Positions 1-19,273 of a stretch of 64,000 bases of DNA are shown here, in pieces. The DNA is from an uncultured Chloroflexia bacterium. GTDB lineage: Bacteria > Chloroflexota > Limnocylindria > Limnocylindrales > CSP1-4. The stretch spans positions 160,001 through 224,000 of the forward strand of contig CAVQJC010000006.1 of NCBI GenBank assembly GCA_963712745.1, given 5' to 3'. Both the position numbers and the translations under genes were made by a program. Position 1 is the first letter of the stretch, and each line of letters begins with the position of its first letter. Below the pieces are notes generated by a model. That model was given only the letters and a program-made list of their open reading frames with translations. It did not search any database and was not told where the DNA came from.

Positions 1-100
1 GGCGAAGCCGGTGCGCACAGACCACGCCCACTTGCGGATCGCGGCCGGCGCGCTCGCGAATGAGGGCAGCCGCCCGGTCGGCGGCGGCGCGCGTGTCCAT
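1..100 (-). CDS. N-terminal part of a probable purine nucleoside phosphorylase (runs off window)
   Basis: Manual translation MDTRAAADRAAALIRERAGRDPQVGVVC(x)TGF resembles the PNP N-terminus (…IRER…P.IG.ILGSG); TATGCT lies 7 nt upstream of the ATG. Confidence 0.5.
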   Translation of the reverse strand, partial: MDTRAAADRAAALIRERAGRDPQVGVVCAHRLR

Positions 101-202
101 GGCCCACAGCATACGGGCGCGCCGAGGCGGCCGAGACGCCTTGCCGCCCTGGGTGCCGCGAACGTAGACTCGGAGGTGCCACCCCGTCCCAGGAGGTTCC
201 TC

Positions 203-1827
203 GTGAGAAAGGCCCTACCGACCCTGCTGCTGAGCGTGCTGCTGGCAGCGGTCATGGCATCGTTCGCAGCCGTCGTCTCTGCCCAGTCCGAGCCTCAGCG
301 TGGAGGACGGCTCGAGCTCATGGCGGCCAATGACCTGACCACGCTCGACAACAGCCAAGTCCTGGATCTCGACTACAACATGGTCGCCGGAGCCCTCTAC
401 GAGGGGCTCTATCACTTCGACCCGCAGGGCCAGCTCGAGTCGGGCCTGGCCGACGGCATGCCCCGAGATCTCGGACGACGGGCTTATCTACACCTTCAAG
501 ATCAAGCCGGGTGCGATGTTCGCCGGGCCCGACTTCGAGCCTCGCGAGGTGACGGCGGCCGACGTCGCCTACGGCATGACCCGGGCGCTCGACCCGGACC
601 CGGTCGGCGCTCCGTATGCATCCTGGGGCGGCGGCTACCTCTTCCCCATCAAGGGCGCGGCCGAGTTCAACACCGGCGAGGCGGACGCTGTGGAGGGCAT
701 CAAGGTCCTCGACGACCACACCCTGCAGGTCACGCTCACCGAGCCGGCCTCGACGTTCCTGCTGGGTCTCACCATCGCGACCAGCTGGCCGGTGCCGGAA
801 GAAGCGGTGAAGGAACGCGGCGAGGGCTTCGCCAACCGCCCGGTCGGCGCCGGCCCGTTCTTCGTCAAGGAATGGAACAAGGGCTCCGACATCACCATCG
901 CCCGCAACCCCGGCTACGTCGACCCCGACCTGCCCTACCTCGATGAGATCTTCGTCGACCTGGGCGTCGACGAGAACACCCAGAAGCTGCGCCTCGAGTC
1001 GGGCCAGGCGGACGGCGTCTTCGAGCAGTTCGCGCTGTCTCCCCAGTCGCTGCGTGAACTGCGCGATGTACCCACGCTGACGCTGGCCGAGTCGGTCGGT
1101 CCACGCATCTTCTACCTGGCTCTCAACAACGATGGCATCCTCAAGGACAAGGACCTGCGCCAGGCGGTGGCCCAGGCCATGACCACGGACTTCACCGTCC
1201 GCTTCGGCGGGCTGGCCAAGCCCTGGAACCAGCTCATGAGCTCGACCTCCGCGCAATCGGACCCGAACGGGACCATTACCTATGCTCACGACCCCGAGGC
1301 GAGCGGCGGCCCTTCTGGAGTCCGCCGGCTACGACGGAACGCCACTCAAGATCGTCTACGACGTGACCGACCCCTACACCACCCAGAACGCCTCCCAGCT
1401 GACGCAGGACCTGGAAGCCGTCGGCTTCGAGGTCGATGCTCAGGGGGCTGCAGAAGGTCGAGTTCTACAGCGCCATCCTTCGAGCCCGAGGCATTCGACA
1501 TCTCGTCGACCTACTGGAGCGCCGACTACCCCGACGCCCAGGACTTCATCTCCACCAACTTCATCTGCGACACGATCGGCGTCCTCAACATCTCGCGCTT
1601 CTGCGACGAGTCCATCGACAAGGCCTTCTTCGCCACCGAGCGCATGGACTTCGGCCCCAAGCGCGATGCCGCCCTGCGAGACGTCCAGCAGCGGCTCATC
1701 GACGAGCTGGCCGGGGTGCCGGTGATGGAGGTCACGCCGGTGGCCGTGTTCGGCGAGCGGGTCGGCGACATCCCCACGCTGGCCACCTACGCGCCCTTCG
1801 ACTGGAAGCGGGCCTGGGTGAAGGCCG

Positions 1828-1835
<8 letters not shown>
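203..1835 (+). CDS. ABC transporter substrate-binding protein, family 5 (OppA/DppA/NikA-like), frameshifted
   Basis: AGGAGG then GTG at 203; signal peptide; LYEGL…F, VTAADVAY, PVGAGPF…W motifs; coding frame switches between ORFs 11..946, 516..1835, 1282..1725 and 1436..1888. Confidence 0.9.
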
Positions 1836-2831
<996 letters not shown>

Positions 2832-2835
<4 letters not shown>

Positions 2836-3689
2836 TCGGGCCCGTCCTCGCCCCGGCACGCGCGCCGGAGCCGACGCGATGGGGCCTGCGCATCGGCATC
2901 GGCCTGTTGATCGATGCTGGCCTTGCTCGTGGTGCTCTATCCGCTGGTGTCGTCCGTCGATCCCGACGTACGAGTCGGTCGCGGGCCTGACCGAGCTCGG
3001 CGAGCCCCTCGGCCCGGGCGCGGACGGCTATCCCCTGGGCACCGACCCCCGCGGCCGGGACATGCTCGCGCGGGTCATCCAGGCCGGCGGGCTGACCATG
3101 CTCACCGCGCTGTCGGCCGTCGCTCATCGCCACCCTGGCCGGCCTCGCCGTGGGCCTGCTGGCGGCCAACACCAGGCGCTTCGCGGGCTCGGTGCTGATG
3201 CGCTTCACGGACCTGGGCCTGGCCATCCCCGGCCTGCTGCTGGCGGCAGCCATCTCGACCATCCTGGGGCGGGGCACGCTCTCGCTCATCGTGGGTCTGG
3301 CCGCGGTCTTCTGGGCACCGATCGCGCGGGTGACCTACGGCCAGGCCGTGGTCCTGCGCGAGCGGGACTACGTGGAGGCCGCGCGCGTCATGGGCGGCGG
3401 GACCACGACGGTCATGCTGCGGCACATCCTGCCCCACCTGCTGCCGGTGGTCGGCGCCTACGCCGCACTGTCGGTCGGCTGGGCCGTGCTCTTCGAGTCG
3501 GCCCTGGGCTTCCTCGGAGCCGGCGTCCAGGAGCCGCAGGCGTCGATCGGCTCGATGCTCGGTCAGCACCTCATCTACTACCGCAGCCACCCCGCTCTCA
3601 TCGTCATCCCGGCCATCTTCCTGGCCGTGCTCGTCATGGCTGCCAACCTGGTGGGCGAGTCGCTGCGCACCCGCACCGAGGAGCGCTGA
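2832..3689 (+). CDS. Peptide/nickel ABC permease (OppC/DppC-like), frameshifted
   Basis: YPLGTDPRGRDMLARV, DYVEAARVMG (EAA loop), RHILPH, ESALGFLGAG. Confidence 0.88.
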
Positions 3690-4609
3690 TGGGCTGGTAC
3701 ATCGGCCGGCGTCTGCTGGCAGCCTTGGTCACGGTCTGGATCGTGGCCACGGCCGGATTCCTGCTGGTCGAGATCATCCCCGGCGACCCGGCCCGGCAGC
3801 TGGCCGGCCCGAGCGCCTCGGCCGAGTCGCTGGCGGCCATCCGCGAGGCCTACGGCTTCGACGATCCGCTGCCGGTCCGCTACCTGGATTCTCTGGGCCG
3901 CATGGCGCGGGGCGACCTGGGTTACAGCTTCGCCAAGGCCGAACCGGTCAGGGACGTGCTCCTGCGCTCGCTGCCGCCGACGCTGCTGCTCACCGGCCTG
4001 GCCTTCCTGGTCGAGATCCTCATCGCCATCCCGCTTGCGCTGTGGGTGGTCAGCCGCGGCGGGCTGGCCGACCGCGTGCTGGTCATCGTGGCGGGCTTCA
4101 CGGCCGCCATCCCGGCCTTCCTGGTGGGCCTCCTGCTGATATACCTCTTCGCCTTCCGCTGGCGCATCTTCCCCCTGGGTGGCGCCGGCGAACCGGCTGC
4201 CTACGCGCTGCCCGTGATCACCCTGGGCATTCCCTTCGGGCTGGTGTTGGCCCGGTTGCTGCGCACGTCCCTGCTCGAGCAGCAGAGCCAGCCCTACATC
4301 ACGTTCAGCTCAGCTCTCGGGGAGCGGCCGTGGTCGGTGCGCTGGCGGCATCTGCTGCCCAACGCGCTGCTGCCCCTGCTGTCGATCCTCGCGCTCGACT
4401 TCGCAGGCCTGTTCTCCAGCGTGGCCGTGGTCGAGGTGGCCTTCTCCATGCCCGGCCTCGGGGCCGACCTGCTGCTCGGCCTCAAGCGCCTCGACACCGC
4501 GCTCATCGTCGGCATCGGCATCGTGGCCGGCCTGCTCGTGGCCGTGGTGAACCTGCTGGCGGACGTGGCCGTCATCGCCATCGACCCGCGCGTCCGGCGC
4601 AGCGACTAG
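3689..4609 (+). CDS. Peptide/nickel ABC permease (OppB/DppB-like)
   Basis: MGWYIGRRLL…IPGDPA…GDLGYS…RHLLPNALLP…IDPRVR; ATG overlaps upstream TGA. Confidence 0.92.
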   Translation: MGWYIGRRLLAALVTVWIVATAGFLLVEIIPGDPARQLAGPSASAESLAAIREAYGFDDPLPVRYLDSLGRMARGDLGYSFAKAEPVRDVLLRSLPPTLLLTGLAFLVEILIAIPLALWVVSRGGLADRVLVIVAGFTAAIPAFLVGLLLIYLFAFRWRIFPLGGAGEPAAYALPVITLGIPFGLVLARLLRTSLLEQQSQPYITFSSALGERPWSVRWRHLLPNALLPLLSILALDFAGLFSSVAVVEVAFSMPGLGADLLLGLKRLDTALIVGIGIVAGLLVAVVNLLADVAVIAIDPRVRRSD

Positions 4610-4615
4610 CCCGAC

Positions 4616-5404
4616 CTAGCCGGACCGGTCGTGCAGCATCGCGGCCAGCAGCTCCTTCGTATAGGGCTCCCGCGGGTCCTCGAAGACCTCTTCACGCGTG
4701 CCCGTTTCCACGATCCGTCCGTCGCGCATGACCGAGACGCGATGCGCGATATGGCGGACCACCGCGAGGTCATGCGCGATGAACAGGTAGCTCAGGCCGC
4801 GCTCCGCCTGCAGGTCCATCAGCAGGTTGAGGATCTGGCCCTGGACCGAGACGTCGAGGGCGGACACCGGCTCGTCGCAGATGATGAGGTCGGGCTCCAG
4901 GGCCAGGGCCCTGGCGATGCCGACACGTTGCAGCTGCCCCCCGGAGAACGAGGACGGTCGACGGTCACCCAGGACCGGGTCGATACCGACCCGCTCCAGC
5001 AACTCGTCTGCACGGCGATGACGCTCATCGCGGTCATACAGCCGGTGGATGACCCAAGGCTCGGCCACGATGTCGCGGACCCGGAAGCGCGGGTCGACCG
5101 AGGAGAACGGGTCCTGATAGATCAGCTGCATGTGCCGCCGCATCCGACGCAACGCAGCACCCTCCAGAGCGAAGAGGTCCTCACCGCGGAACGTGGCGGT
5201 ACCGGCATCGGGCTCGAGCAGCCGCAAGAGGATGCGTCCGGTGGTGGACTTGCCAGAACCCGACTCACCGACCAGGCCATGCGTCTGGCCCGCATCGACG
5301 CGGACGTCCACGTTCTGCACCGCGCGCACGACGCGCCGTTTCCTTCCCCGGCCGCTGGCGAACGCCTTGGAGAGGCCGCGCGCGTCAAGCAGTAGCTCAC
5401 CCAT
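4616..5404 (-). CDS. Peptide/nickel ABC transporter ATP-binding protein (OppF/DppF-like)
   Basis: GLVGESGSGKST, FSGGQLQRVGIARAL, ICDEPVSALDVSVQ, FIAHDLAVV, PYTKELL. Confidence 0.93.
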   Translation of the reverse strand: MGELLLDARGLSKAFASGRGRKRRVVRAVQNVDVRVDAGQTHGLVGESGSGKSTTGRILLRLLEPDAGTATFRGEDLFALEGAALRRMRRHMQLIYQDPFSSVDPRFRVRDIVAEPWVIHRLYDRDERHRRADELLERVGIDPVLGDRRPSSFSGGQLQRVGIARALALEPDLIICDEPVSALDVSVQGQILNLLMDLQAERGLSYLFIAHDLAVVRHIAHRVSVMRDGRIVETGTREEVFEDPREPYTKELLAAMLHDRSG

Positions 5405-5616
5405 GCGTCGCAGCGTAGCGTCCCCAGGCCGCAGACAGGCCGGGCCGGCGAGCCGACCCGGGCAGATGGGACTCCCGATACCCAACGACCCGGTTGCACG
5501 GTGCTCGATCTCTTCAGCCCGCCCAGCAAGAAGACGGGGGTCGATCGGACCTAGCCCCGATGGCAGGCCACGCGGCCGTCACCGCTGACGATCAGAGCGA
5601 GCCTGCCGCCCCTCTG

Positions 5617-5889
5617 TCAGGACGTCGCCGCGTCGTCGGCTTCCCCCTCCACGTCGATGGAGACGAGGCGAAGGTCGGTCGGCTCGTCGGTCTCGGTGAG
5701 ATGGAGTACGGCACCCTCGGCTGGCGTGCCAGTGGCGTGCTGTTCCCAGTGGAAGCGGAGGGCGTCCTCGGAGACGCGGGCCAGCGCTCCGGCCTCGAGA
5801 TAGACCGAGGTGACGCGAGCGGCCCCGGCCCCCGCGGCTTCTTCCACGACGATGTCCAGGATGCGGTCGACGATGCCGGCTTCGTGCAC
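5617..5889 (-). CDS. hypA: Hydrogenase nickel metallochaperone HypA homologue lacking the Zn-finger
   Basis: MHE N-terminus, V.LE.G.L..V..DALRF, T.AEGA.L, C-terminal L.L.SIDVE; no Cys; GGAGG RBS; downstream of hydrogenase genes. Confidence 0.85.
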   Translation of the reverse strand: MHEAGIVDRILDIVVEEAAGAGAARVTSVYLEAGALARVSEDALRFHWEQHATGTPAEGAVLHLTETDEPTDLRLVSIDVEGEADDAATS

Positions 5890-5996
5890 GTGTACCTCCG
5901 AGAGCGGATGGATGGGGCCGGGCAGGGGCCCTTGTCAGCCGAGAGTCTCGCTGATTGACACCCGGATCGCCTCTGCCGCTGCCCGAGGCGAGGGCC

Positions 5997-6596
5997 TCAG
6001 GCGGGCACCGCCGCCTTGCCCTCGATCAGGGCCATGGCCCTGTCCACCACCTCGGGCACCGCCGCCTCCACGAGCTCGGTCATACCTCCGCCTACGGTCC
6101 AGTAGTCCCCCGCCTCGACGGCCACGATGACCAGGTCAGCCGGCACCTCCAGGCCAAGAGCACGGGCCACATCGAGCGTCTCCAGGATCCCGATGTAGTG
6201 AGGCGAGGAGCCTCGAGGACCATCGAGGTCGCTCTCCTTCAGCTCAAGCACCGTGCCCGGGTCAGCCGCCCCGGTGACGACTGAATCGATGATGATGAGC
6301 CTGGAAGCCCCCACGACCGCGTCGAGCAGGTACATGCCGGTCAGGGCAGTCTCCACGAGCTCGACCCTCCCGACCCGTGGGAGTGCGAAGGCGCGCACCG
6401 TCAACGCCGGGTCGACCGCGTCCTTCGGATCGGCCGGCGTTCCGGCGAGAGCGAGACGTCCGATGAGCGCGCGAGCCGCGACGATGCCCACGCCATCATC
6501 CGAGATCAGCTCGTTGCCCAGGCACAGTACCCGGGTAGACCCACCGACGGCACCGCTCCGCTCGGCGGTGCCGTTACTCGCGGTGGAGACTTCCAT
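5997..6596 (-). CDS. Hydrogenase maturation endopeptidase (HyaD/HycI family)
   Basis: VLCLGNELISDDGVG, LIIIDSV, SSPHYIG motifs; follows large subunit. Confidence 0.92.
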   Translation of the reverse strand: MEVSTASNGTAERSGAVGGSTRVLCLGNELISDDGVGIVAARALIGRLALAGTPADPKDAVDPALTVRAFALPRVGRVELVETALTGMYLLDAVVGASRLIIIDSVVTGAADPGTVLELKESDLDGPRGSSPHYIGILETLDVARALGLEVPADLVIVAVEAGDYWTVGGGMTELVEAAVPEVVDRAMALIEGKAAVPA

Positions 6597-8127
6597 CGGA
6601 GTCGCGGCGGAGCAACGAGACTGGCTCGCCGTCCGAGCCCCGCACCGCCACGATCAGCGGCATGCTCCCAGGAAGGGAGTGAGTGGCACAGGCATGGCAG
6701 GGGTCGTACGCACGGAAGGCCATCTCCACCTTGTTGAGGATGCCCTCGGACACCGTCCCCTTCGAGATCAGCCCCTCTGCCGCCTTCTGCACGCTCATCG
6801 CGATGCGCGCCGAATTGTTCTGAGTTGCGACGATCAGGTTGGCCTTCTCGATGATGCCGCGAGAGTCGGTGACGTAGTGATGGAAGAGTGTGCCGCGAGG
6901 CGCTTCCACCACCCCGACACCCTCGTGCGGCGTCTTGGTGGGCAGGGTACGAACCTCCGGGTCGACGAGCTCCGGGTCGTCAGCCAGCTCCTTGAGGCGC
7001 TCCGCCGCGTAGAGCAGTTCCACGACCCGGGCCCAGTGGTTGGCCAGGGTATGGTGCACCGGCTTGCCGCCGAGCGTGGAGTACATCTCCTCGTACGCCT
7101 CCTGGGCCAGCGGAGTGGCCATGGCGTCAGCGGCATTCAGCCGGGCCAGAGGTGCGACCGAGTAGATGCCGCTCTCAGGACCTTCGGTGAAGCCGTTCCA
7201 GCCCACCGGCTTGAGGTAGCAGAACTTGGTGTATGACCAGGGCTCGACATGCTCCGCCACGATGTCGAGGTAGTCGGCGGCGTCGAAGGTCCTCCATTCG
7301 CTACCCTCGGGACTGACCACGCGGATGCGCCCGTCGTAGAAGTTGGGCCGCACCTGCTCGTCCATGAGTCCCATGTAGTAGGTGCGGTGGGTATAGGCGT
7401 CGGAGACGATCAGGTCGACGTATGCCGGGTTGGCCAGCACGACCGAGTGGAAGAGGTCCAGGGTAAAGCGAGCGAAATCCACCGCATCCGCGGCCGTCTC
7501 CTTGATCTGTGCCTGGTCCTCCGCCGTGACGCGCTTGGCGACGCCCCCCGGCAGCCCGAGGACAGGGTGGATGACCTTCCCGCCCGTCATGGAGATGATC
7601 TCCCGCAGGCGGCGTCGCATGGAGATCACCTTCAGCCCGGCCTCTTCGCCCACGGTGGCGATGACGCCGAGGACGTTGCGTTGGGCGGCTGGCGCCTCCG
7701 GGCCCACGACGAAGTCGGGACCGCCGAGGAAGTAGAAGTGCAGCGCGTGGTCCTCGACCATGAATGCCGAGTAGACGAGCTCGCGAATCTTCTTGGCCGC
7801 CGGCGGTGGCTCTACCTGGTAGAGCGCGTCGAGCGCCTTGGTGGCCGCCATGTGATGCGCCGTCGGGCAGACACCGCAGATGCGGGAGGTGATCTGGGGC
7901 ATGTCCTCGGCAGGGCGGCCCTGGGCGAACTTCTCGAACCCACGCAACTCCGGGACCTGGAAGTAGGCACGATCCACGTCCCCCGCCTCGTCGAGGAAGA
8001 TGTCGATCTTGCCGTGCCCTTCGAGGCGGGTGATGGGATCGATGGTGATGCGGCGTCGGGCGTAGGCAGTCTGGGCCCCCTGGGAACCTCGCTGCCATGC
8101 TTCCTGGGTGGTCATCTCATCGGGCAT
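6574..8127 (-). CDS. mvhA: [NiFe] hydrogenase large subunit, MvhA-type (group 3c)
   Basis: DPITRLEGHGKI, RGFEKF, SRICGVCPTAH (L1), RAYDPCHACATH (L2) plus cleavable C-terminal extension; synteny with mvhG/mvhD/hdrA. Confidence 0.93.
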   Translation of the reverse strand: MPDEMTTQEAWQRGSQGAQTAYARRRITIDPITRLEGHGKIDIFLDEAGDVDRAYFQVPELRGFEKFAQGRPAEDMPQITSRICGVCPTAHHMAATKALDALYQVEPPPAAKKIRELVYSAFMVEDHALHFYFLGGPDFVVGPEAPAAQRNVLGVIATVGEEAGLKVISMRRRLREIISMTGGKVIHPVLGLPGGVAKRVTAEDQAQIKETAADAVDFARFTLDLFHSVVLANPAYVDLIVSDAYTHRTYYMGLMDEQVRPNFYDGRIRVVSPEGSEWRTFDAADYLDIVAEHVEPWSYTKFCYLKPVGWNGFTEGPESGIYSVAPLARLNAADAMATPLAQEAYEEMYSTLGGKPVHHTLANHWARVVELLYAAERLKELADDPELVDPEVRTLPTKTPHEGVGVVEAPRGTLFHHYVTDSRGIIEKANLIVATQNNSARIAMSVQKAAEGLISKGTVSEGILNKVEMAFRAYDPCHACATHSLPGSMPLIVAVRGSDGEPVSLLRRDSDGSLHRE

Positions 8128-8140
8128 GTCTCTGGGCTCC

Positions 8141-9123
8141 TCAGGCGTCGACGGGAGTCATCTTGCGCCGGCGCAGCAGTGAACTGGCCAGGCCATAGCG
8201 GTAGAACGTGCCGATGGGGTCAGGGATGCTGTCGAGGGCGGAGTCGATATCCTCGTCCTCGAGGGCCGAGAGCATCGAAGCCACGGCCGACAGGTACTTG
8301 CCACCCTGGTCGTGCACCCTGCTGGTGGGACCGAAGCAGCCGGTACAGGGCATGTTCCCGTTGATGCACAGCTGGCCGCAGCCCGCCCTGGTGGCCGGTC
8401 CCATGCACAACAAACCCTGGGCCAGCAGGCAGGTCTCCTCGTCGATGAGGACCTCGTGGGGACGCAGGAAGCGCTCCAGGCTCAGGTCCTGCGGCTTGGA
8501 CTCGAGGCGGGGGCACTCCTCGCACAGGGAGATGTCTGGCGTCAGGACCGTCCCCGCGGGCGGCAGGTCGCCGCTCAGCAGCGTCTGGACCGCATCGGCG
8601 ATGACGTTCGGCGTGGGCGCGCAGCCCGGGATGTAGTAGTCCACCGACGTGACCTGGTCGAGGACCTGGACCGTTTGGTAGAAGCCGGGGAGGGTCAGCG
8701 TACTCGCCGTTGTGCGGCGTCTTGACCGACGGCAGGACGCCGTCCGGATTGTCGGTCGACGACGTTGTCGAGGTAGACGGCCTGGAAGATGTCATCCCGG
8801 TCCCACAGGTTGGCGAGGGCAGGGATGCCACCGAGATGGGCGCAGGAGCCGAAGGCCACCAGCACCTTCGATTTCCGCCGCAGCAGGTGGGCCATCTCCT
8901 CCTGCTCGGTGGTGCGGATGGAGCCGTTCACGAAGGCGGCCAGGATGGACCCGTCCTCCATGGCCTCCACATCGGCCTTCTTGAAGTCAAGTGCCACCGG
9001 CCAGAAGACGATGTCGACCGCGGCGACCACGTCGAGGATCTGCTCGGCGAGGTCAACGATGGCCTCTTCGCAGCCCCCGCATGAGGAGCACCAGTAGAAG
9101 GCGACCTTCGGCTTGTCGCTCAT
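8141..9123 (-). CDS. mvhG: [NiFe] hydrogenase small subunit, MvhG-type, frameshifted
   Basis: WCSSCGGCE, VAFGSCAHLGGIP, YYIPGCAP, LCEECP, CLLAQGLLCMGPATRAGC…C…PCTGCFGP; frame changes near 8650-8770. Confidence 0.9.
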
Positions 9124-9608
9124 GCCGTCACCTCCGCCAGCTCTGCGACTTCGGAGAACTCCTCGGCCGGCACTTCCACGTGCAGCGGCCCGAGCTCGTT
9201 CAGGTGCTCCACCATGTCGTTCATCACGTCGCGCAGCTTGTCGGCCTCGGCGGCGGAGATCCACTCGAGGCGGATGCGTTCCTCCTCGATGCCCATGCCC
9301 ACCAGGACCCGCTTCAGCAGCCGGAAGCGGCGCGCCGCCTTGTGGTTGCCCGACTGGTAGTGGCAGTCGCCGAAGTGGCAGCCGCCGATGAGCACGCCGT
9401 CGGCACCGTTGGCGAACGCTTCCATGACGAACTGGGGGTCGACCCGGCCGGAGCACATCACCCGGATGACCCGCGCGTTCGGTGCGTACTTCATGCGCGA
9501 GGTGCCGGCCAGGTCGGCCGCCAGGTAGGTGCACCAGTTGCAGAAGAAGGCGACGATCTTCGGCTCCCAGCCGGCGCCGTCCTGCGGCACTGCGTTCGGT
9601 TCAGACAT
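9120..9608 (-). CDS. mvhD: Hydrogenase iron-sulfur subunit MvhD (2Fe-2S)
   Basis: IVAFFCNWCTY, IRVMCSGRVDP, GGCHFGDCHY, RLEWISAAE. Confidence 0.95.
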   Translation of the reverse strand: MSEPNAVPQDGAGWEPKIVAFFCNWCTYLAADLAGTSRMKYAPNARVIRVMCSGRVDPQFVMEAFANGADGVLIGGCHFGDCHYQSGNHKAARRFRLLKRVLVGMGIEEERIRLEWISAAEADKLRDVMNDMVEHLNELGPLHVEVPAEEFSEVAELAEVTA

Positions 9609-11594
9609 GTGCCAGCACCCCCAGGATCTCCTCGTAGATCTCTTCGTCCTCGAACAGGTTCTGCCGGATCGATCCGGACGGGCAGGCGGCGACGCAGACG
9701 CCACAGCCCTTGCAGAGCACCGGGTTGATCTCCGCCTTCTCGTCCACCCGGGTGATGGCCGTGTAGGGGCAGAGCGGGATGCAGGTCTTGCAGCCCGAGC
9801 ATTCCTCCGTCACCACGTACGCGGTGTTGGGCTCCATCTCGACATAGCCACGGTCGATCAGGGCCAGCGCCTCGGAGGCGGCGGCCCCGGCCTGGGCCAC
9901 GGTGTCGGGGATGTCCTTGGGCCCCTGGCAGGCGCCGGCGAGGAAGATGCCGTCCGTGAACGTGCTCACCGGAGCGAGCTTCGGGTGGCGCTCCATGAAG
10001 AAGCCGCCCGAGGCGCAGGTGATGTTGAAGGTGCGGCGAACGTCCTCGGCGTCGGCCTGCGGCTCCAGGCCGGTCGCCAGGACCAGCATGTCGACGGGGA
10101 TCTTGCGCACCCGGCCGAGCAGCGTGTCCTCCGCCTGAAGGATCACCCTCCCGGTGTCACCGTCCTCCGGGTACACGTCGCGCTACCTTGCCCCGGATGA
10201 AGTGGACCCCCTCCTCGGCGACCCGGTTGTAGAACTCCTCCATGCCCTTCCCGGCCGCGCGGATGTCGATGTAGAAGTTGTAGATCTCCGCCCCGGTCTT
10301 CTCCTTGACCAGGTGCGCCAGCTTCAGGGAGTACATGCAGCAGACACGGGAGCAGTACTCGTTGGTGTTGACGTCGCGACTGCCGATGCAGTGGACGATC
10401 CCCACCGTCTTCGGCGTCCGGCCGTCGCGCAAGGTAACGTGCCCCTCGGTCGGACCCGACGAGTTCACCAGCCGCTCCAGCTCCAGGGCGGTGTAGACCT
10501 CTGGGTAGGCTCCGTAGCCGTACGTCGGGAGTCCGCTTCGGGTCGAAGGTCTTGAAGCCGGTGGCGAGGATGACCGCGCCGACCTCGACCGTGTCGAACG
10601 TCTCCGTCTGCGTGAAGTCGATGGCGTTGCGGTCGGCGCAGACCTCCACGCAGGTCTTCTTGCAGCGACCGCTCTTGAATTCGATGCAGGCCTCCTGGTC
10701 GATGACCACCAACGGCGGCACGGCCTGGGGGAAGGGGATGTAGACCGGCTTGCGCATGCTCAGGCCGAGGTTGAACTCGTCGGGGGTCTTGCCCACCTTG
10801 TAGACGCAGGCGTCGATGCACTCGAGACAGCCGACGCAGGCGTCCTCGACGATGAAGCGCGGCTTGTGGCGCACGGTCACCGTGTAGTTGCCCACGTAGC
10901 CGTCGACGTTGTCGACCTCGGCCATCGTCCACAGCGTGATGTTGGGGTTGGAGCGCACCTCGGTCATCTTCGGAGTGAGGATGCAGGCGGCGCAGTCGAG
11001 CGTCGGGAAGGTCTTGTCGAACTGGGCCATGTGCCCGCCGATCGATGGCTCCCGTTCGACGAGGTAGACATGCTTGCCGGCGTTGGCCATGGTCAGGGCG
11101 GCGTGGATGCCGGCGATGCCGCCGCCCACGACCATCACCGCCGGCGTGACATCGACCCGCTGCCGCTCGAGCGGCTTGTGGAAGCGCACGCGGTGGACGG
11201 CGGCGCGGATGAGGTCCTTGGCCTTGAAGGTCGCCTCGTTCATGTCGATGTGGACCCAGGCATCCTGCTCCCGGATGTTCACCATCTGGAAGAAGTAGGG
11301 GTTGAGGCCGCCCTCCGATGTGGCTCGGCGGAAGGTGGTCTCGTGGAGGCTGGGCGAGCAGGAGGCGACGACGACCCGGTCGAGGCCATTGGCCTTGATG
11401 TCCTCCTTGATGAGCTCCTGGCCGGGGTCGGAGCACATGTACTTGTAGCCCCGGGCCACCGCCACGCCGGGGAGGCCCTCGGCGAACTGGCGCACCGCTT
11501 CCACGTCGACCGTAGCGGCGATGTTGGTGCCGCAGTGGCAGACGTAGACCCCGATCTTCGGCTGGCCGTTACCGTTCGTGTCGGCCCGGTTCAT
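9601..11594 (-). CDS. hdrA: Heterodisulfide reductase subunit A family flavoprotein, frameshifted
   Basis: IGVYVCHCGTNI, VVGGGIAG, KTFPTLDCAACIL, HCIGSRD…YCSRVCCMYSLK, GACQGPKDIP, two C-terminal CxxCxxCxxxCP; shifts near 10530 and 10180. Confidence 0.93.
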
Positions 11595-13605
11595 GTGCCG
11601 CTCCTCTGCGCTGCGCCGATCGTCTCTTCCACGACCGTGGTCTCTTCCACGACCGTGGTCTCTTCCACGCCCATGGTCTCTTCCACTAGCTCCACGATGT
11701 CCCGGATGACGAGCGATCCTTCCAGCTCTGTGGTCTTGAGAGCATCACGGAACATGACGAGGTCCTTGGGGCAAGCCACGACCATGGTGGTGACCCCCTG
11801 AAGGCCGGCAGCCTCGCGGACGCGGCTCTCGGCCGGTCGCTCACCGCCGGACGCGGTGTCCTCCATCCAGATCCGCCCGCCACCGGCCCCGCAGCAGTAC
11901 GCGGACGAGCGGTTGCGCGGCATCTCCACCAGCTCGAGCCCCAGCTGCTTCAGGACGCTGCGCGGGGCCTCGTAGACGCCTCCATAGCGGCCTAGGTAGC
12001 ACGGGTCGTGGTAGGTGACCCGGGCGCCGGGGTTCGGGGAGAAGGCGAGGCGGCCCGACGAGATGAGCTCGTCGAGGACCTCGGTGTAGTGCTTGACCTG
12101 CCCATCCAGCCCGTATTCATGCTTGAGGACGAAGTAGGTATGCGGGTCCGTCGTCACGATGGTCTTGAACTGCGATGACTCGAGGGCCGCCGAGTTCTTG
12201 TCCTTCAGCATCTCGAAGAGGCCTTCTTCGCCGAGGCGGCGGATGTCGTTGCCGGCGTTCTGCTCGGCGTCGTAGAGGATCCCGAAGTCCAGGGCCGCTC
12301 GATCGAAGACGCGGGCTGCTGCTCGAGTGACCTCCTGGACCCGAGGGTCGAACGACGCGTAGTCGCCGACGTACCAGAGGTACTCGACAGGCTCCTTGCG
12401 GGCGTCGCGGACCTCGAAATCCAGGTCCCGCGTCCACTTGGGCCGACTGCGCGGCGACTGGCCGAACGAGTTGCCATAACGGGTCATGCCCATGAGCATG
12501 TCCTGGACCCCGGTCCCGACGGCCCCCTCGCCCATCAGATGCCGCCGCATCTGGACGATGAGTGGGACGTGTTCGTTGAAGACGGGGCAACGCTCCATGC
12601 AGGCCATGCACGTCGTGCAGGACCAGATGGCCTCAGGGCCTACCGTATCGATGAGACTCCCCTTCCCGTCACCGTCCGCCGCAGCGAGGACCATCCGCCT
12701 GACGTCATGGATAAGGTCCCGGGGCGAGAGCACCCGCACCGGAGGCGAACGCCGGACAGGCCCGGTCGCAGCGACCACACTCGGCACAGGCGAGGCCGTT
12801 GAACAACTCCCGCCAGGTGAAGTCCTCCAGTCGTGCGGCTCCCTCTGATGGCAGCGGCGTCATCGCCAGGGTCCAGGGAGGCAGTGAAGACGTTGAACGG
12901 CGAGGCCAACAAATGGAGGTGCTTGGAGTACGGCAGGTAGGCCAGGAAGCCCAGCACTGCGAGCATGTGCACCCACCACATCGACAGATACAGCGACTCG
13001 GCAGTCGCTGTAGAGATGCCGCCGAGCCACGAACCGATCAACTCACCGATCGGGCTCCCGCTCACGGCCTCCGGTTCGGCGGCGGCCTTCGCCCCCTGGC
13101 CGACGAGGAAGGTCACCATGAGGAGCGCGATGAGCACGAGGATGAACCCGGCGTCCCGAGACAGCGTCAGTCGCGGCGGCGGGAAAGCGAACCGGCGAAC
13201 GGCCACTCCGGCTAGTGCGACCAGGGTGGCCACGCTCAGCAACTCCATGGGGAAGGTGATCCATGGCACTTCGTCGGCGTACGGGATCGGCAGGAACGGG
13301 AACAGGCCCCGGAGGAGATTCCAGGCGAAGCTGCCCGCGTAGAAGATGAAGGTCCAGAAGATGATGAGGTGGGCCAGCCCCATCCCGAGGTTATCGAACA
13401 TGCGGCGCTGGCCCGCCACGTTGACCACGACGTTCCAGAGCCGGCGCGGGGCCTGATCCCAGCGCGGTTCAGCCCTCCCTCGGCCGACCGTGGTCAGGAT
13501 CATGTAGGCCCGCCGCCCGAAGATGACGCCAACCACCAAGGTGATCGCCCACAGGTAGACGAAGCCGGGGATGCCGAGGTAGGTCGTCGTGGTCGGATCC
13601 GGCAT
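11591..13605 (-). CDS. Membrane-anchored Fe-S oxidoreductase (NarI/HdrE-like heme-b membrane domain + 2x4Fe-4S + CCG domains; HdrF/FadF/EMO-like), frameshifted
   Basis: Five TM helices with AHLIIFW, WWVHML, PYSKHLH; CAECGRCDRACP; WSCTTCMACMERCP; TYHDPCYLGR; CCGAGGG; shifts near 12860 and 12740. Confidence 0.88.
11622..11686. repeat. In-frame 18 bp tandem repeat (about 3.6 units) encoding VEETxx
   Basis: gtctcttccac starts at 11622, 11640, 11658 and 11676. Confidence 0.9.
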
Positions 13606-13610
13606 CGGTG

Positions 13611-14586
13611 CTACCCCTTCCGCTTCCTGACCGCCTCCGCCAGCGCCTCCAGGACGTCGGTGGCATCCTCGACGTAGCCGTAGTGCGCGACCGAGAAGAT
13701 GGGGGCATCAGGGTCGGTGTTGACGGCGATGATCGAGATCGGCGTCTCGCATGCCCTCGACGTGCTCGGGAGCGCCGCTGATGCCTGCCGCGACGTACAG
13801 TCGCGGTTTCACGGTCACGCCGGACTTCCCGACCTGGCGCGCGAGTGGGAGCCACGCCTGGTCGATCACCGGCCGCGAGCCACAGACGGCCCCGCCCAGC
13901 ACATCGGCCAACTCCTGGGCGACTTCGAGATTGGCCTCCATGCCGATGCCTCGGCCTACCGAGACGAGGACATCCTGTTGGGCGATGTCGACGTCGCCGA
14001 CCTCTGGGGCTTCGAACTCGAGCAGGCGTACGCGGGAGTCATCGGCCAGCTCGACCGACACATCCTCCACCACAGGCTCGGTGGTACCTCGGCCTGCATC
14101 GGGTGGTCTCGTCCCGGGCATGACAGCGAACACCGTGGGCGCGGACTCGGCCGTCACCGTCACGGCCATCTTCCCGCCGTACAGCAGGCTGGTGGCCTGT
14201 AGCACACCGTCGACCACCGCGACGTCCTGGCAGAAGTTGACGAATGGGGCCTCGAGTCGCCCAGGCAGCAGCCCGAGCAGGTCCCAGCTGACGTTCGTGG
14301 CCGGTACCAGGAGTGCTGCAGGGGTGCGGTCTGCAGCCAGCGAGGCGAGCGCGCGGCTGGTCTGTTCGCCGGTGGCATCGGCGAGGACGGCATGGTCGAC
14401 GTAGAGGACCGCATCGGCCACGCCCAGTGACGCGGACAACTCTCGTATCCCGTGGCCGAGCAACGTGGCCTCGAGACGCACGCCAAGCGAATCGGCCAGC
14501 TCGCGCCCGAGCGCCAGGGTCTCGTATGTGACGTCCGAGATCTCACCCTTCCAGTGATCGACCACCACCCATACGTTGCCTGTCAT
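13611..14586 (-). CDS. etfA: Electron transfer flavoprotein alpha subunit, frameshifted
   Basis: [43 protein letters not shown]; after shift near 13735 continues [18 protein letters not shown]. Confidence 0.93.
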
Positions 14587-17081: not shown

Positions 17082-17348
17082 ATGCATGAAGCCGGCGTGA
17101 CCGAACGCATCCTGGAGATCGTCCTCCAGCACGCGAAGGAAGCCCACGCCACACGGGTGACCGACGTCTACCTGGAGGTGGGCGAGGAGTCGGGTATCGA
17201 CACCGACTCCGTCGAGCTCCACTGGCCGCTCCTCGCGGAAGGCTCCGTGGCCGAGGGCTCGATCCTGCACTTCGACACCAAGGAGGATGAGCCGTTCTCC
17301 TTCCGACTGACCAGCATCGAGGTCGACGAGGCAGTCGTCGCCGGCTGA
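17082..17348 (+). CDS. hypA: Second HypA homologue lacking the Zn-finger
   Basis: MHEAGVTERILEIV…VTDVYLEVGE…AEGSILHF…FRLTSIEVD; no Cys; clearly paralogous to 5617..5889. Confidence 0.85.
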   Translation: MHEAGVTERILEIVLQHAKEAHATRVTDVYLEVGEESGIDTDSVELHWPLLAEGSVAEGSILHFDTKEDEPFSFRLTSIEVDEAVVAG

Positions 17349-17431: not shown

Positions 17432-19273
17432 CTAGGGTTCGGACTCCCTGGGCAGCGGCACGAAACGAACCGCATCGAACGCCACGCGCCGGCCGAGCGA
17501 GCCACTCTCGCCGGTCTTGTCGATGAGCTGGACGACCGAGGTCGGGGTCAGCTGGTGGACGCCCAGGCCGACCCAGCGGCCAGCACCCTTCTGCTGGTCA
17601 CGGGTCCTCCTGACCCAGCCGTCGGGTGTCCTGATCTTGTAGGTGGCGCTGCGAGTGGCAGCGTCCTGGCGTGGGATGTGGGCGAGGACCTGGTAGCGGC
17701 CGGCCGGCAGCTCCGGCCTCCAGACGGCATACCGCTCCCGAGTCCCGACCCTCGTGGGCGCCCAGAAGTGATGATCGGCGTAGCCGCTGGTCGCCTGTCG
17801 CCAGCCCGATCCGTAGCGGCGGAACCCTGGGTCGAGATCGTCGACATAGACCGTCACCGGCTCCGGAGCGCAGCGCTCTGCGAGCGCGCCCGCGTCGAGC
17901 CGTCCTCCACTCACGGTCAGTCCCGCCAGCGAGTCCGTGGCCGCAGCGGTCTCGATGAGCCGCGCGTGGATCTGACGCGCCGTCAGGGCCGGGTCGAGGC
18001 TGGCACACAGGGCCGCGGCTCCACTGACGTGAGCCGCGGCCATGCTGGTGCCGGTGTAGCCGGCGTAGCCCTCGACCCCATCGGGGTGAGTGCTGCTGAT
18101 GCCCGTGCCCGGCGCGCCCAGGTCCACGCCCGCTGCACCCCAGTCCGAGTCGGGACGCCGAGCTCCGTCCGGCTGCAGGTTGGCCACGGCCATGAGGCAG
18201 TCCCAGCCGCGGTCGCTGCCGTCGGCACGTGTGGCACAGCGGTAGGCCGCCGGATACACGGGCGCGCGGTCGATATCCCGGCCCTCGTTCCCGGCCGCGG
18301 CCACGAACAGGATGTCGGCATCGCCGGCACGGGCGATGGCGTCGGCAAGCGCCTCACTGTGGCCACCTCCGCTCCAGCTGTTGTTGGTGGCCACGACACG
18401 CAGGCCGTGACGCAGCTTGAGGTCGGTGATGTAGTCGAGCGCCGCGATCGCGTCGCTGATGTACCCACCGCCGGGGCCCATGAACCTGGCCGGGATGAGC
18501 GTCACGCGCCAGCTCACGCCGGCCACACCGCGGCCGTTGCCGCCTCGAGCGCCGATGGTGCCCGCCACGTGAGTTCCGTGATCGTCGGCCGCACCGTGGT
18601 AGACGGTGGCGTCGCCGCCGAGGAAGTCCCAGCCATGGATGTCGTCGATGTAGCCGTTGCCATCGTCGTCGCGTCCGTTGACGGACTCCCATGGGTTGGT
18701 CCAGACGTTCGGCTCGAGGTCCGGGTGCGTGATCTTGACACCCTCGTCGACGATGCCCACGTGGACCCCGGCCGAGCCGATGCGACCGTCCGCCCAGGCT
18801 TCGCCGGCGCCTGTACCGAAGGCGTTGGCGTGCGGCACGGTCCCGTCGCCGTACATGCCCCAGAGATCGCCCCTGGCGTACCACGGGTCGTCGGCGGTAG
18901 CCGCCGGCCACACCCGGTAGTCCGGCTCCACCCATGCGACGCCCCGGCGTGCGCCGATGCTCAAGAGGGCGGAACCCACGGAGGTACCGCGCACCAGGCG
19001 CACCACCGCCGTGTCCTCCGCCAGGGGCGAGACCGGTCGCCCGGCCGAGGTGCCGGCGGCTGAGACGGCGAGCTTCCTCTTCGCCTTGGAGGCTCCGGCC
19101 TTGAACCCGACGATGACGCGATCGGGAGCGTGTGGTCGGGCCAGGGCCCTGGCCACGCCGGCGTCGTCAGCGCTGGCCACAGCGGCTGCTGCCACCGGGG
19201 CAGCCAAGGCGACCAGCAGGAGTCCGGCCAGGAAGGGACGGCGAGCGTGCGGCCGCGTGGCAGACGTGTCCAT
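17432..19273 (-). CDS. Secreted S8 subtilisin-like serine protease with C-terminal golvesin/Xly CBM-like domain
   Basis: Signal peptide; GIVDEG, DHGTHVAGTI, AAAGN, GTSMAAAHV; NGRDDDGNGYIDDIHGWDF; C-terminal GRYQV…GRWVGLG…VAFDAVRF. Confidence 0.9.
   Translation of the reverse strand: MDTSATRPHARRPFLAGLLLVALAAPVAAAAVASADDAGVARALARPHAPDRVIVGFKAGASKAKRKLAVSAAGTSAGRPVSPLAEDTAVVRLVRGTSVGSALLSIGARRGVAWVEPDYRVWPAATADDPWYARGDLWGMYGDGTVPHANAFGTGAGEAWADGRIGSAGVHVGIVDEGVKITHPDLEPNVWTNPWESVNGRDDDGNGYIDDIHGWDFLGGDATVYHGAADDHGTHVAGTIGARGGNGRGVAGVSWRVTLIPARFMGPGGGYISDAIAALDYITDLKLRHGLRVVATNNSWSGGGHSEALADAIARAGDADILFVAAAGNEGRDIDRAPVYPAAYRCATRADGSDRGWDCLMAVANLQPDGARRPDSDWGAAGVDLGAPGTGISSTHPDGVEGYAGYTGTSMAAAHVSGAAALCASLDPALTARQIHARLIETAAATDSLAGLTVSGGRLDAGALAERCAPEPVTVYVDDLDPGFRRYGSGWRQATSGYADHHFWAPTRVGTRERYAVWRPELPAGRYQVLAHIPRQDAATRSATYKIRTPDGWVRRTRDQQKGAGRWVGLGVHQLTPTSVVQLIDKTGESGSLGRRVAFDAVRFVPLPRESEP

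Follow-up and report, generated by a model that had tools for sequence, protein, structure and literature searches.

A gene in the 64,000-nucleotide stretch of DNA analysed here (the window) encodes a short HypA-like protein with no cysteine, and it raises the question of whether a HypA that lacks its zinc site is a real gene product and, if so, what it does. As the textbook case of a nickel chaperone, HypA serves hydrogenases (and, in Helicobacter pylori, also urease); mutational work treats its zinc site as essential, and the maturation endopeptidase acts after nickel insertion. In three reviews (PMC7055735, PMC13202556 and PMC12134894), HypA is described as binding nickel through its N-terminal amine together with His2/Glu3, as obtaining the metal from or with HypB and as delivering it to a large subunit in which Fe(CN)2CO is already in place. 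The 2019 review (PMC7055735) adds that every HypA protein has two metal sites, one for nickel and a structural one for zinc, and that zinc-site cysteine mutations in H. pylori lower hydrogenase and urease activity. In a search of the full-text literature on HypA, with subscription journals mostly outside its scope, no paper turned up that describes a HypA without zinc. We refer to the protein studied here as HypA-1 and to a paralogue in the same window as HypA-2 (Table 1).

Table 1. Positions in the window of the two short hypA genes and of the hydrogenase genes upstream of the first.
Feature	Position	Strand	Remarks
Short HypA (HypA-1)	5617..5889	-	Intact ORF, 90 codons, 0 Cys
GGAGG ribosome-binding site (Shine-Dalgarno) of HypA-1	5895..5899	-	Sequence, 5 nt 5' of GTG
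HycI-type hydrogenase maturation endopeptidase	5997..6596	-	Directly upstream of HypA-1
[NiFe] hydrogenase large subunit, Mvh/group-3c-like	6574..8127	-	517 aa; RICGVC, DPCHACATH, C-terminal extension
MvhD-like and small-subunit (MvhG-like) genes	8141..9704	-	Three frames versus a single ORF in genome G077
HdrA-like and HdrB/C-like (CCG-domain, 4Fe-4S) genes	9601..13776	-	Upstream; frame changes versus G077
Short Cys-free HypA (HypA-2)	17082..17348	+	88 aa, 45% identical to HypA-1, 0 Cys, same gap

The gene, its product and the predicted fold

The start codon of HypA-1 is a GTG read as methionine, which gives the N-terminus M-H-E-A-G-I and places Met-His-Glu, the nickel-binding motif of HypA in the literature, at its predicted start. 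The spacing of the Shine-Dalgarno sequence from this GTG fixes the N-terminus at M-H-E, and the start position is common to 18 orthologous loci (GTG in 14, ATG in four). His2 and Glu3 are invariant among 34 close relatives, and Met1, His2 and Glu3 are each at least 90% conserved among 72 diverse short forms. The protein is acidic (19 Asp + Glu against 5 Lys + Arg, 4 His, calculated pI of 4.2). From about residue 82 it ends in a variable, acidic low-complexity tail, which in 86 of 87 relatives measures 5-35 residues (median 14, 34% Asp + Glu) and which, speculatively, might help solubility or weak metal binding.

When the short proteins are aligned with three canonical HypAs, they show a gap of about 38 columns that lies exactly over CxxC...CxxC. 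In HypA-1 an eight-residue acidic linker (residues 65-72, TETDEPTD) spans this gap, where canonical proteins have an insert of about 40 residues, and both the strand flanking the gap and the last strand (LRLVSIDVE) still align with canonical HypA. The structural zinc site formed by two CxxC motifs is absent from HypA-1, there being no Cys among its 90 residues. The Pfam HypA profile (PF01155) recognizes the protein with 55.7 bits (cut-off 28.9), the match being restricted to residues 1-67, which correspond to profile positions 1-67 of 112. Databases already name short forms of this kind HypA; the NCBIfam HypA models miss them, and all five (TIGR00100 and four others) fall below their cut-offs for HypA-1 (best score 43.9 bits versus 88.1). 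JGI labels many Cys-free relatives 'Zn finger protein HypA/HybF involved in hydrogenase expression', a misfit to their sequences.

The AlphaFold2 model of HypA-1, calculated from a 72-sequence alignment, has a pLDDT of 89.4 and a pTM of 0.77. It consists of a helix (residues 2-21), a strand (26-33), a second helix (41-52) and two further strands (61-66 and 73-80), followed by a tail without ordered structure beyond about residue 82. HypA chains make up all of the best 12 matches listed by Foldseek against the PDB (E down to 4e-7). With VIA-align, model residues 1-82 superpose on residues 1-135 of Thermococcus kodakarensis HypA (5aup_H; Z of 14.0, r.m.s.d. of 1.2 Å for 82 residues); H. pylori HypA reaches a Z of 13.2, and the top non-HypA fold has a Z of 7.1. 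The superposition on HypA chains suggests that the 82 ordered residues form a complete nickel domain, put together from both segments that flank the zinc domain, and the predicted fold of HypA-1 is that of the alpha/beta HypA nickel domain. The original prediction had read the gene as a Cys-free HypA of 90 residues with an MHE start, the nickel-domain pattern and the last strand, in which TETDEPTD takes the place of the CxxC pair; ORF and alignment agree with this description, and the profile alignment and structure prediction that it had proposed as checks both bear it out.

Predicted complexes of the large subunit with short HypA scored 0.06 and 0.01 (mark 0.32), values that are taken neither for nor against a contact. 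According to one review, His98 of T. kodakarensis HypA completes the high-affinity nickel site in the HypAB complex (PMC7055735). Among 127 representatives, histidines on helix 2 are enriched in the short forms: 25 of 60 have one at position 47, compared with three of 67 canonical forms, and ten of 60 have one at position 43, compared with none of 67, counts that ignore relatedness. As a lead only, His47 and His51 (HxxxH, helix 2) could be a candidate stand-in for the missing His98-type ligand; His51 is absent from HypA-2.

Two contig pieces of 151 bases each from a metatranscriptomic library (X17) are identical to the window; one (5690-5840) lies inside the HypA-1 gene and the other (5881-6031) links the start of this gene, the intervening spacer and the protease gene. 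The genes for the protease and the large subunit are partly covered by contigs of other RNA libraries. These matches are a hint that HypA-1 is expressed, given that RNA libraries can contain DNA and that contigs show neither strand nor level.

Relatives, selection and the number of origins

A word-indexed database search returned 92 relatives, most of them 85-115 residues long and 64-84% identical to HypA-1; 90 of the 92 lack CxxC and 86 are entirely free of Cys. When 1.84 billion cluster representatives were searched exhaustively, 631 matches at E <= 1e-3 were obtained. The query and 147 of the best 150 representatives were classified, with P0089 and P0090 (already in the first set) and the 2318-residue P0172 left out. 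They divide into 67 canonical proteins, 13 fragments truncated at the C-terminus, eight others and 60 short forms without CxxC, the last being the query plus 59 more clusters at 50% identity; these numbers do not estimate a global share because the query is itself short. The source names of the short HypAs include Chloroflexota and Acidobacteriota/Bryobacterales, among others, and the commonest phyla among the short HypA clusters of the ESM Atlas are Chloroflexota, Gemmatimonadota and Actinomycetota.

The HypA-1 gene yields dN/dS values of 0.12-0.33 against 17 orthologues (Nei-Gojobori, first 81 codons). Of 153 orthologue pairs, 152 have dS > 0.05, and their median is 0.20. A contig from a DNA run matches window positions 5500-5959 with no differences and no gaps; it possibly derives from the source sample and so is not an independent witness. 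One might suspect that HypA-1 is a fragment of a gene in decay, or that an error-prone assembly produced it, and the neighbouring hdr and mvh genes do shift frame several times relative to G077. Against this, the frame of HypA-1 is intact, the same architecture recurs in 90 of the 92 relatives from many independent assemblies, dN/dS is close to 0.2, the fold is predicted confidently and the DNA-run contig is identical over the region. Since an in-frame loss of about 38 codons is common to so many relatives, it is no indel error. The fragment or artefact explanation is refuted, with next to no chance of being right, and HypA-1 is a genuine gene under selection, neither an error nor a relic.

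A tree was calculated for 127 rows from the 75 columns that make up the nickel domain, with the insert omitted. The labels 'short' and 'canonical' change at least 21 times on it, compared with a mean of 42.6 (range 33-51) for shuffled labels, and a single clade of short forms is rejected by the AU test (p = 0.009). On this alignment the short HypAs are polyphyletic, and the zinc domain appears to have been lost or gained several times, the count of events being rough given the short alignment. Because the tree is unrooted, loss and gain are indistinguishable on it, and to call the domain 'deleted' presupposes a direction.

These results bear on three further statements of the original prediction. 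Its expectation that a sequencing error was unlikely agrees with the intact frame and the shared in-frame loss, and the paralogue that it had noted with the same deletion is HypA-2. The short homologues that it had asked to see under purifying selection were found, both in the 92 relatives and in the further clusters. The proposal of a 'Zn-independent HypA subfamily' is supported, with qualifications: short CxxC-free homologues are many, but they do not form one subfamily, and 'Zn-independent' is a putative property that we infer only from the absent Cys4 site.

Gene neighbourhoods and maturation partners

The literature expects a HypA to be encoded with a [NiFe] hydrogenase or with hyp genes, and HypA-1 is the last gene behind the hdr, mvh and protease genes. 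The protease is 69% identical to its G077 orthologue, which matches Pfam HycI (PF01750). Related loci were found with an alignment of close relatives in public genomes, the majority of them MAGs that bear the title uncultured Chloroflexia or Candidatus Limnocylindrales. In 14 of the 20 loci the order is small subunit, large subunit, protease, short HypA; a 15th, ended by a contig edge, shows the protease only, which brings the protease to 15 of 20. Three loci (L023, L025 and L033, gene at 5001-5264) carry a close orthologue of the short HypA without an upstream hydrogenase, directly before cydA-cydB, together with a CydDC-like ABC-transporter gene in L025 and L033 and a transposase in L023. 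The two remaining loci are distant (32-33% identical) and have neither the hydrogenase order nor cydAB. Two subtypes of large subunit lie beside short HypAs, 86-89% and 57-60% identical to that of the window, and the large subunits keep RxCGxC, DPCxxCxxH and the C-terminal extension. The order Hdr-Mvh-HycI-short HypA is also recovered with Pfam in G077 and G010. In G077, cydBA adjoins the short HypA gene as well, in convergent orientation.

In the window, the HdrB/C-like, HdrA-like and MvhD/G-like genes (8141-13776, minus strand) each occupy three frames where G077 has single ORFs, and the ABC-transporter genes at the window start (1-4600) also look split. Indel errors of a long-read assembly are the likely cause, rather than pseudogenes.

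HypA-2 has no hydrogenase adjacent to it in the genome of the window (G000); its gene converges on one for an S8 protease (17432-19273, minus strand). Full-length short HypAs were found in 12 of 24 other genomes of the genus. The 11 of these that were examined as loci (L008-L018) are all of the HypA-2 type (77-92% identical) and in all 11 the gene follows a large subunit, with large subunit and protease preceding it; the S8 protease gene is convergent with it in ten. The large subunits in question are about 53-55% identical to that of the window, apart from one that is fragmentary and one at 92%. HypA-2 in the window keeps only its S8 neighbour, and the hdr-mvh operon with HypA-1 lies inverted about 11 kb away, an arrangement that suggests either an inversion or a misassembly.

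The wider class was sampled with 251 genomes of at least 80% completeness, including the unpublished G267. Of these, 45 have a HypA match at E <= 1e-6, and in 21 a match ends by profile position 71 and was counted as short. Twenty of these 21 proteins were read (19 fetched and that of the window's genome, G267 being left out); all are about 85-100 residues long, have no CxxC and fall into several different sequence types. In genus g6 (L059-L063 and L065) the short CxxC-free HypA starts with M-H-Q rather than M-H-E and has 'GEDDEHTE' before helix 2. HypB over the TIGR00073 cut-off, a count of the GTPase type as opposed to the ATPase type (Mrp/MinD), is present in 12 of the 251 genomes, each time beside a high-scoring canonical HypA. 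It is found in four of the 21 short-HypA genomes (four of 20 without G267) and is absent over the cut-off from the other 17.

No other HypA match at E <= 1e-6 is present in 14 of the 21 short-HypA genomes. Five of the 14 were rechecked at E <= 1: G010, G075 and G099 have no full-span second HypA even at this threshold, and G077 and G220 have a weak full-span match (17-18 bits) beside another large subunit. The one in G077 (L050 5511-5840, plus strand; G077:C1:895510-895840) is a very divergent MHE protein, some 110 residues long, with two CAGC motifs (17.9 bits, Pfam HypA); its gene is flanked by the cytochrome b and protease genes of a group-1-type hydrogenase. Such a protein would escape standard annotation. 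This CxxC-bearing gene in G077, and probably that in G220, means that the short form is not always the sole HypA. Judged by these sequences, the short HypAs look like hydrogenase-specific paralogues that are sometimes the only recognizable HypA.

Other maturation genes are unevenly distributed. The window's genome has three [NiFe] large subunits and a hypA-hypB pair, and neither HypD nor HypF was found in it by HMM and tblastn. Beside its group-3b-like hydrogenase, HypC is followed by a DUF6390 gene (G000:C17:295610-296802; L053 11608-12802, minus strand) with an MFS transporter nearby, and the same grouping occurs in G001 and G009. Across the genus, 37 of 41 genomes encode large subunits and seven of 41 encode HypD (eight of eight and three of eight, respectively, among high-quality genomes); the five high-quality genomes without HypD also have no HypE or HypF, and four of them keep HypC. 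In the 251 genomes of the class HypD is found in 33 and DUF6390 in 73, never both together. The 21 short-HypA genomes divide into 11 with HypD, eight with DUF6390 and two with neither (G010 and G267), and in several (G075, G187, G223 and G182) a DUF6390 gene follows downstream, at most about 1 kb from the short HypA. No mention of DUF6390 was found in the literature searched.

Function and comparison with known HypA proteins

We consider it probable (about 70%) that HypA-1 acts as a hydrogenase-specific, single-domain nickel chaperone of the adjacent Mvh/Hdr-type [NiFe] hydrogenase. What the data show is that HypA-1 is homologous to HypA, has its predicted fold, lacks the zinc site, is conserved and under selection and is linked to hydrogenase genes. 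The reading would further have HypA-1 bind nickel, deliver it to the adjacent enzyme and work without a zinc domain and, in most genomes, without the GTPase HypB. Ni(II) would be held at the N-terminal amine, His2 and Glu3; HypA-1 would dock on the immature large subunit and pass the nickel over, and the adjacent HycI-type protease would then cut off the C-terminal extension of the large subunit. Several observations weigh against the chaperone role, namely the score of 43.9 bits against the NCBIfam equivalog cut-off of 88.1, the three of 20 loci in which a short HypA has no hydrogenase and the position of HypA-2, likewise without an adjacent hydrogenase in this genome. In addition, zinc-site Cys mutants of H. 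pylori HypA are less active (PMC7055735), from which it follows that a zinc-less HypA might be impaired or otherwise employed.

One such employment would be as a non-metal accessory factor that, for example, holds the immature large subunit's N- or C-terminal tail or aids the HycI-type protease. The linkage to the protease gene in 15 of 20 related loci fits this idea, as does the missing zinc domain, which is said to be needed for partner interactions (PMC13202556), and in T. kodakarensis the tail at the large subunit's N-terminus touches the nickel site of HypA (PMC7055735). The nickel ligands M1-H2-E3, however, are invariant or nearly so in short forms, which would be unexpected for a protein with no metal role, and the start codon and ribosome-binding site set exactly the M-H-E N-terminus; we regard an accessory role as unlikely. 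A short HypA might instead be an adaptor that works only with a canonical HypA and HypB, here the pair on contig C5, and gives specificity for the Mvh-type enzyme. The window's genome does hold both kinds of HypA as well as HypB, HypA paralogues confer hydrogenase specificity elsewhere (PMC12134894), and G077 has its second, divergent CxxC-bearing HypA-like gene. An obligate adaptor is nevertheless hard to reconcile with the many short-HypA genomes that have no HypB over the cut-off (17 of 21) or no other HypA match (14 of 21), and with G010, G075 and G099 in particular, and it seems very improbable.

The chaperone reading can be extended. The zinc-less HypA could be a self-sufficient nickel insertase with no NTPase partner, forming with the endopeptidase a two-gene finishing module for Mvh-type hydrogenases. 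Coupling to HypB would then have been lost together with the zinc domain, and in some lineages the module would be part of a non-canonical maturation pathway where HypC and DUF6390 replace HypD, HypE and HypF. We put this forward tentatively and think it on the whole doubtful.

A large and diverse natural set of HypAs without a zinc domain, under selection and in hydrogenase operons, indicates that the nickel domain can stand alone. The short forms thus offer a natural test of what the zinc domain is for, be it HypB coupling, partner choice or sensing, and they also matter for annotation.

The canonical HypA of the window's own genome (contig C5) is a protein of 116 residues with CGFC and CPDC motifs, followed directly by HypB. 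It resembles HypA-1 in its MHE start and is 30% identical to it over the nickel domain; unlike HypA-1, it matches the PF01155 profile over positions 1-111 (97.5 bits) and has no hydrogenase beside it. HypA from T. kodakarensis (PDB entries 3A43 and 3A44; with HypB, 5AUN and 5AUP; with HyhL, 5YXY and 5YY0) likewise has the MHE start and a nickel domain like that of HypA-1, to which it is 34-35% identical. In this protein of about 139 residues, however, a Zn(Cys)4 domain lies between the last two strands, where HypA-1 has an eight-residue turn. Escherichia coli HypA/HybF and H. pylori HypA (PDB entries 6G81 and 2KDX) belong to the same PF01155 family and share the nickel-domain fold (Z of 13.2 and 11.2 for 6G81 and 2KDX, respectively), and the idea of a hydrogenase-specific paralogue, as HybF is in E. 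coli, fits the gene linkage of the short HypAs. The E. coli and H. pylori proteins bind zinc through two CxxC motifs and work with the GTPase HypB, whereas HypA-1 has no CxxC and the genomes of most of its relatives have no GTPase HypB. By homology and fold HypA-1 belongs with HypA, and it departs from the known proteins in one of the two metal sites by which the literature defines them.
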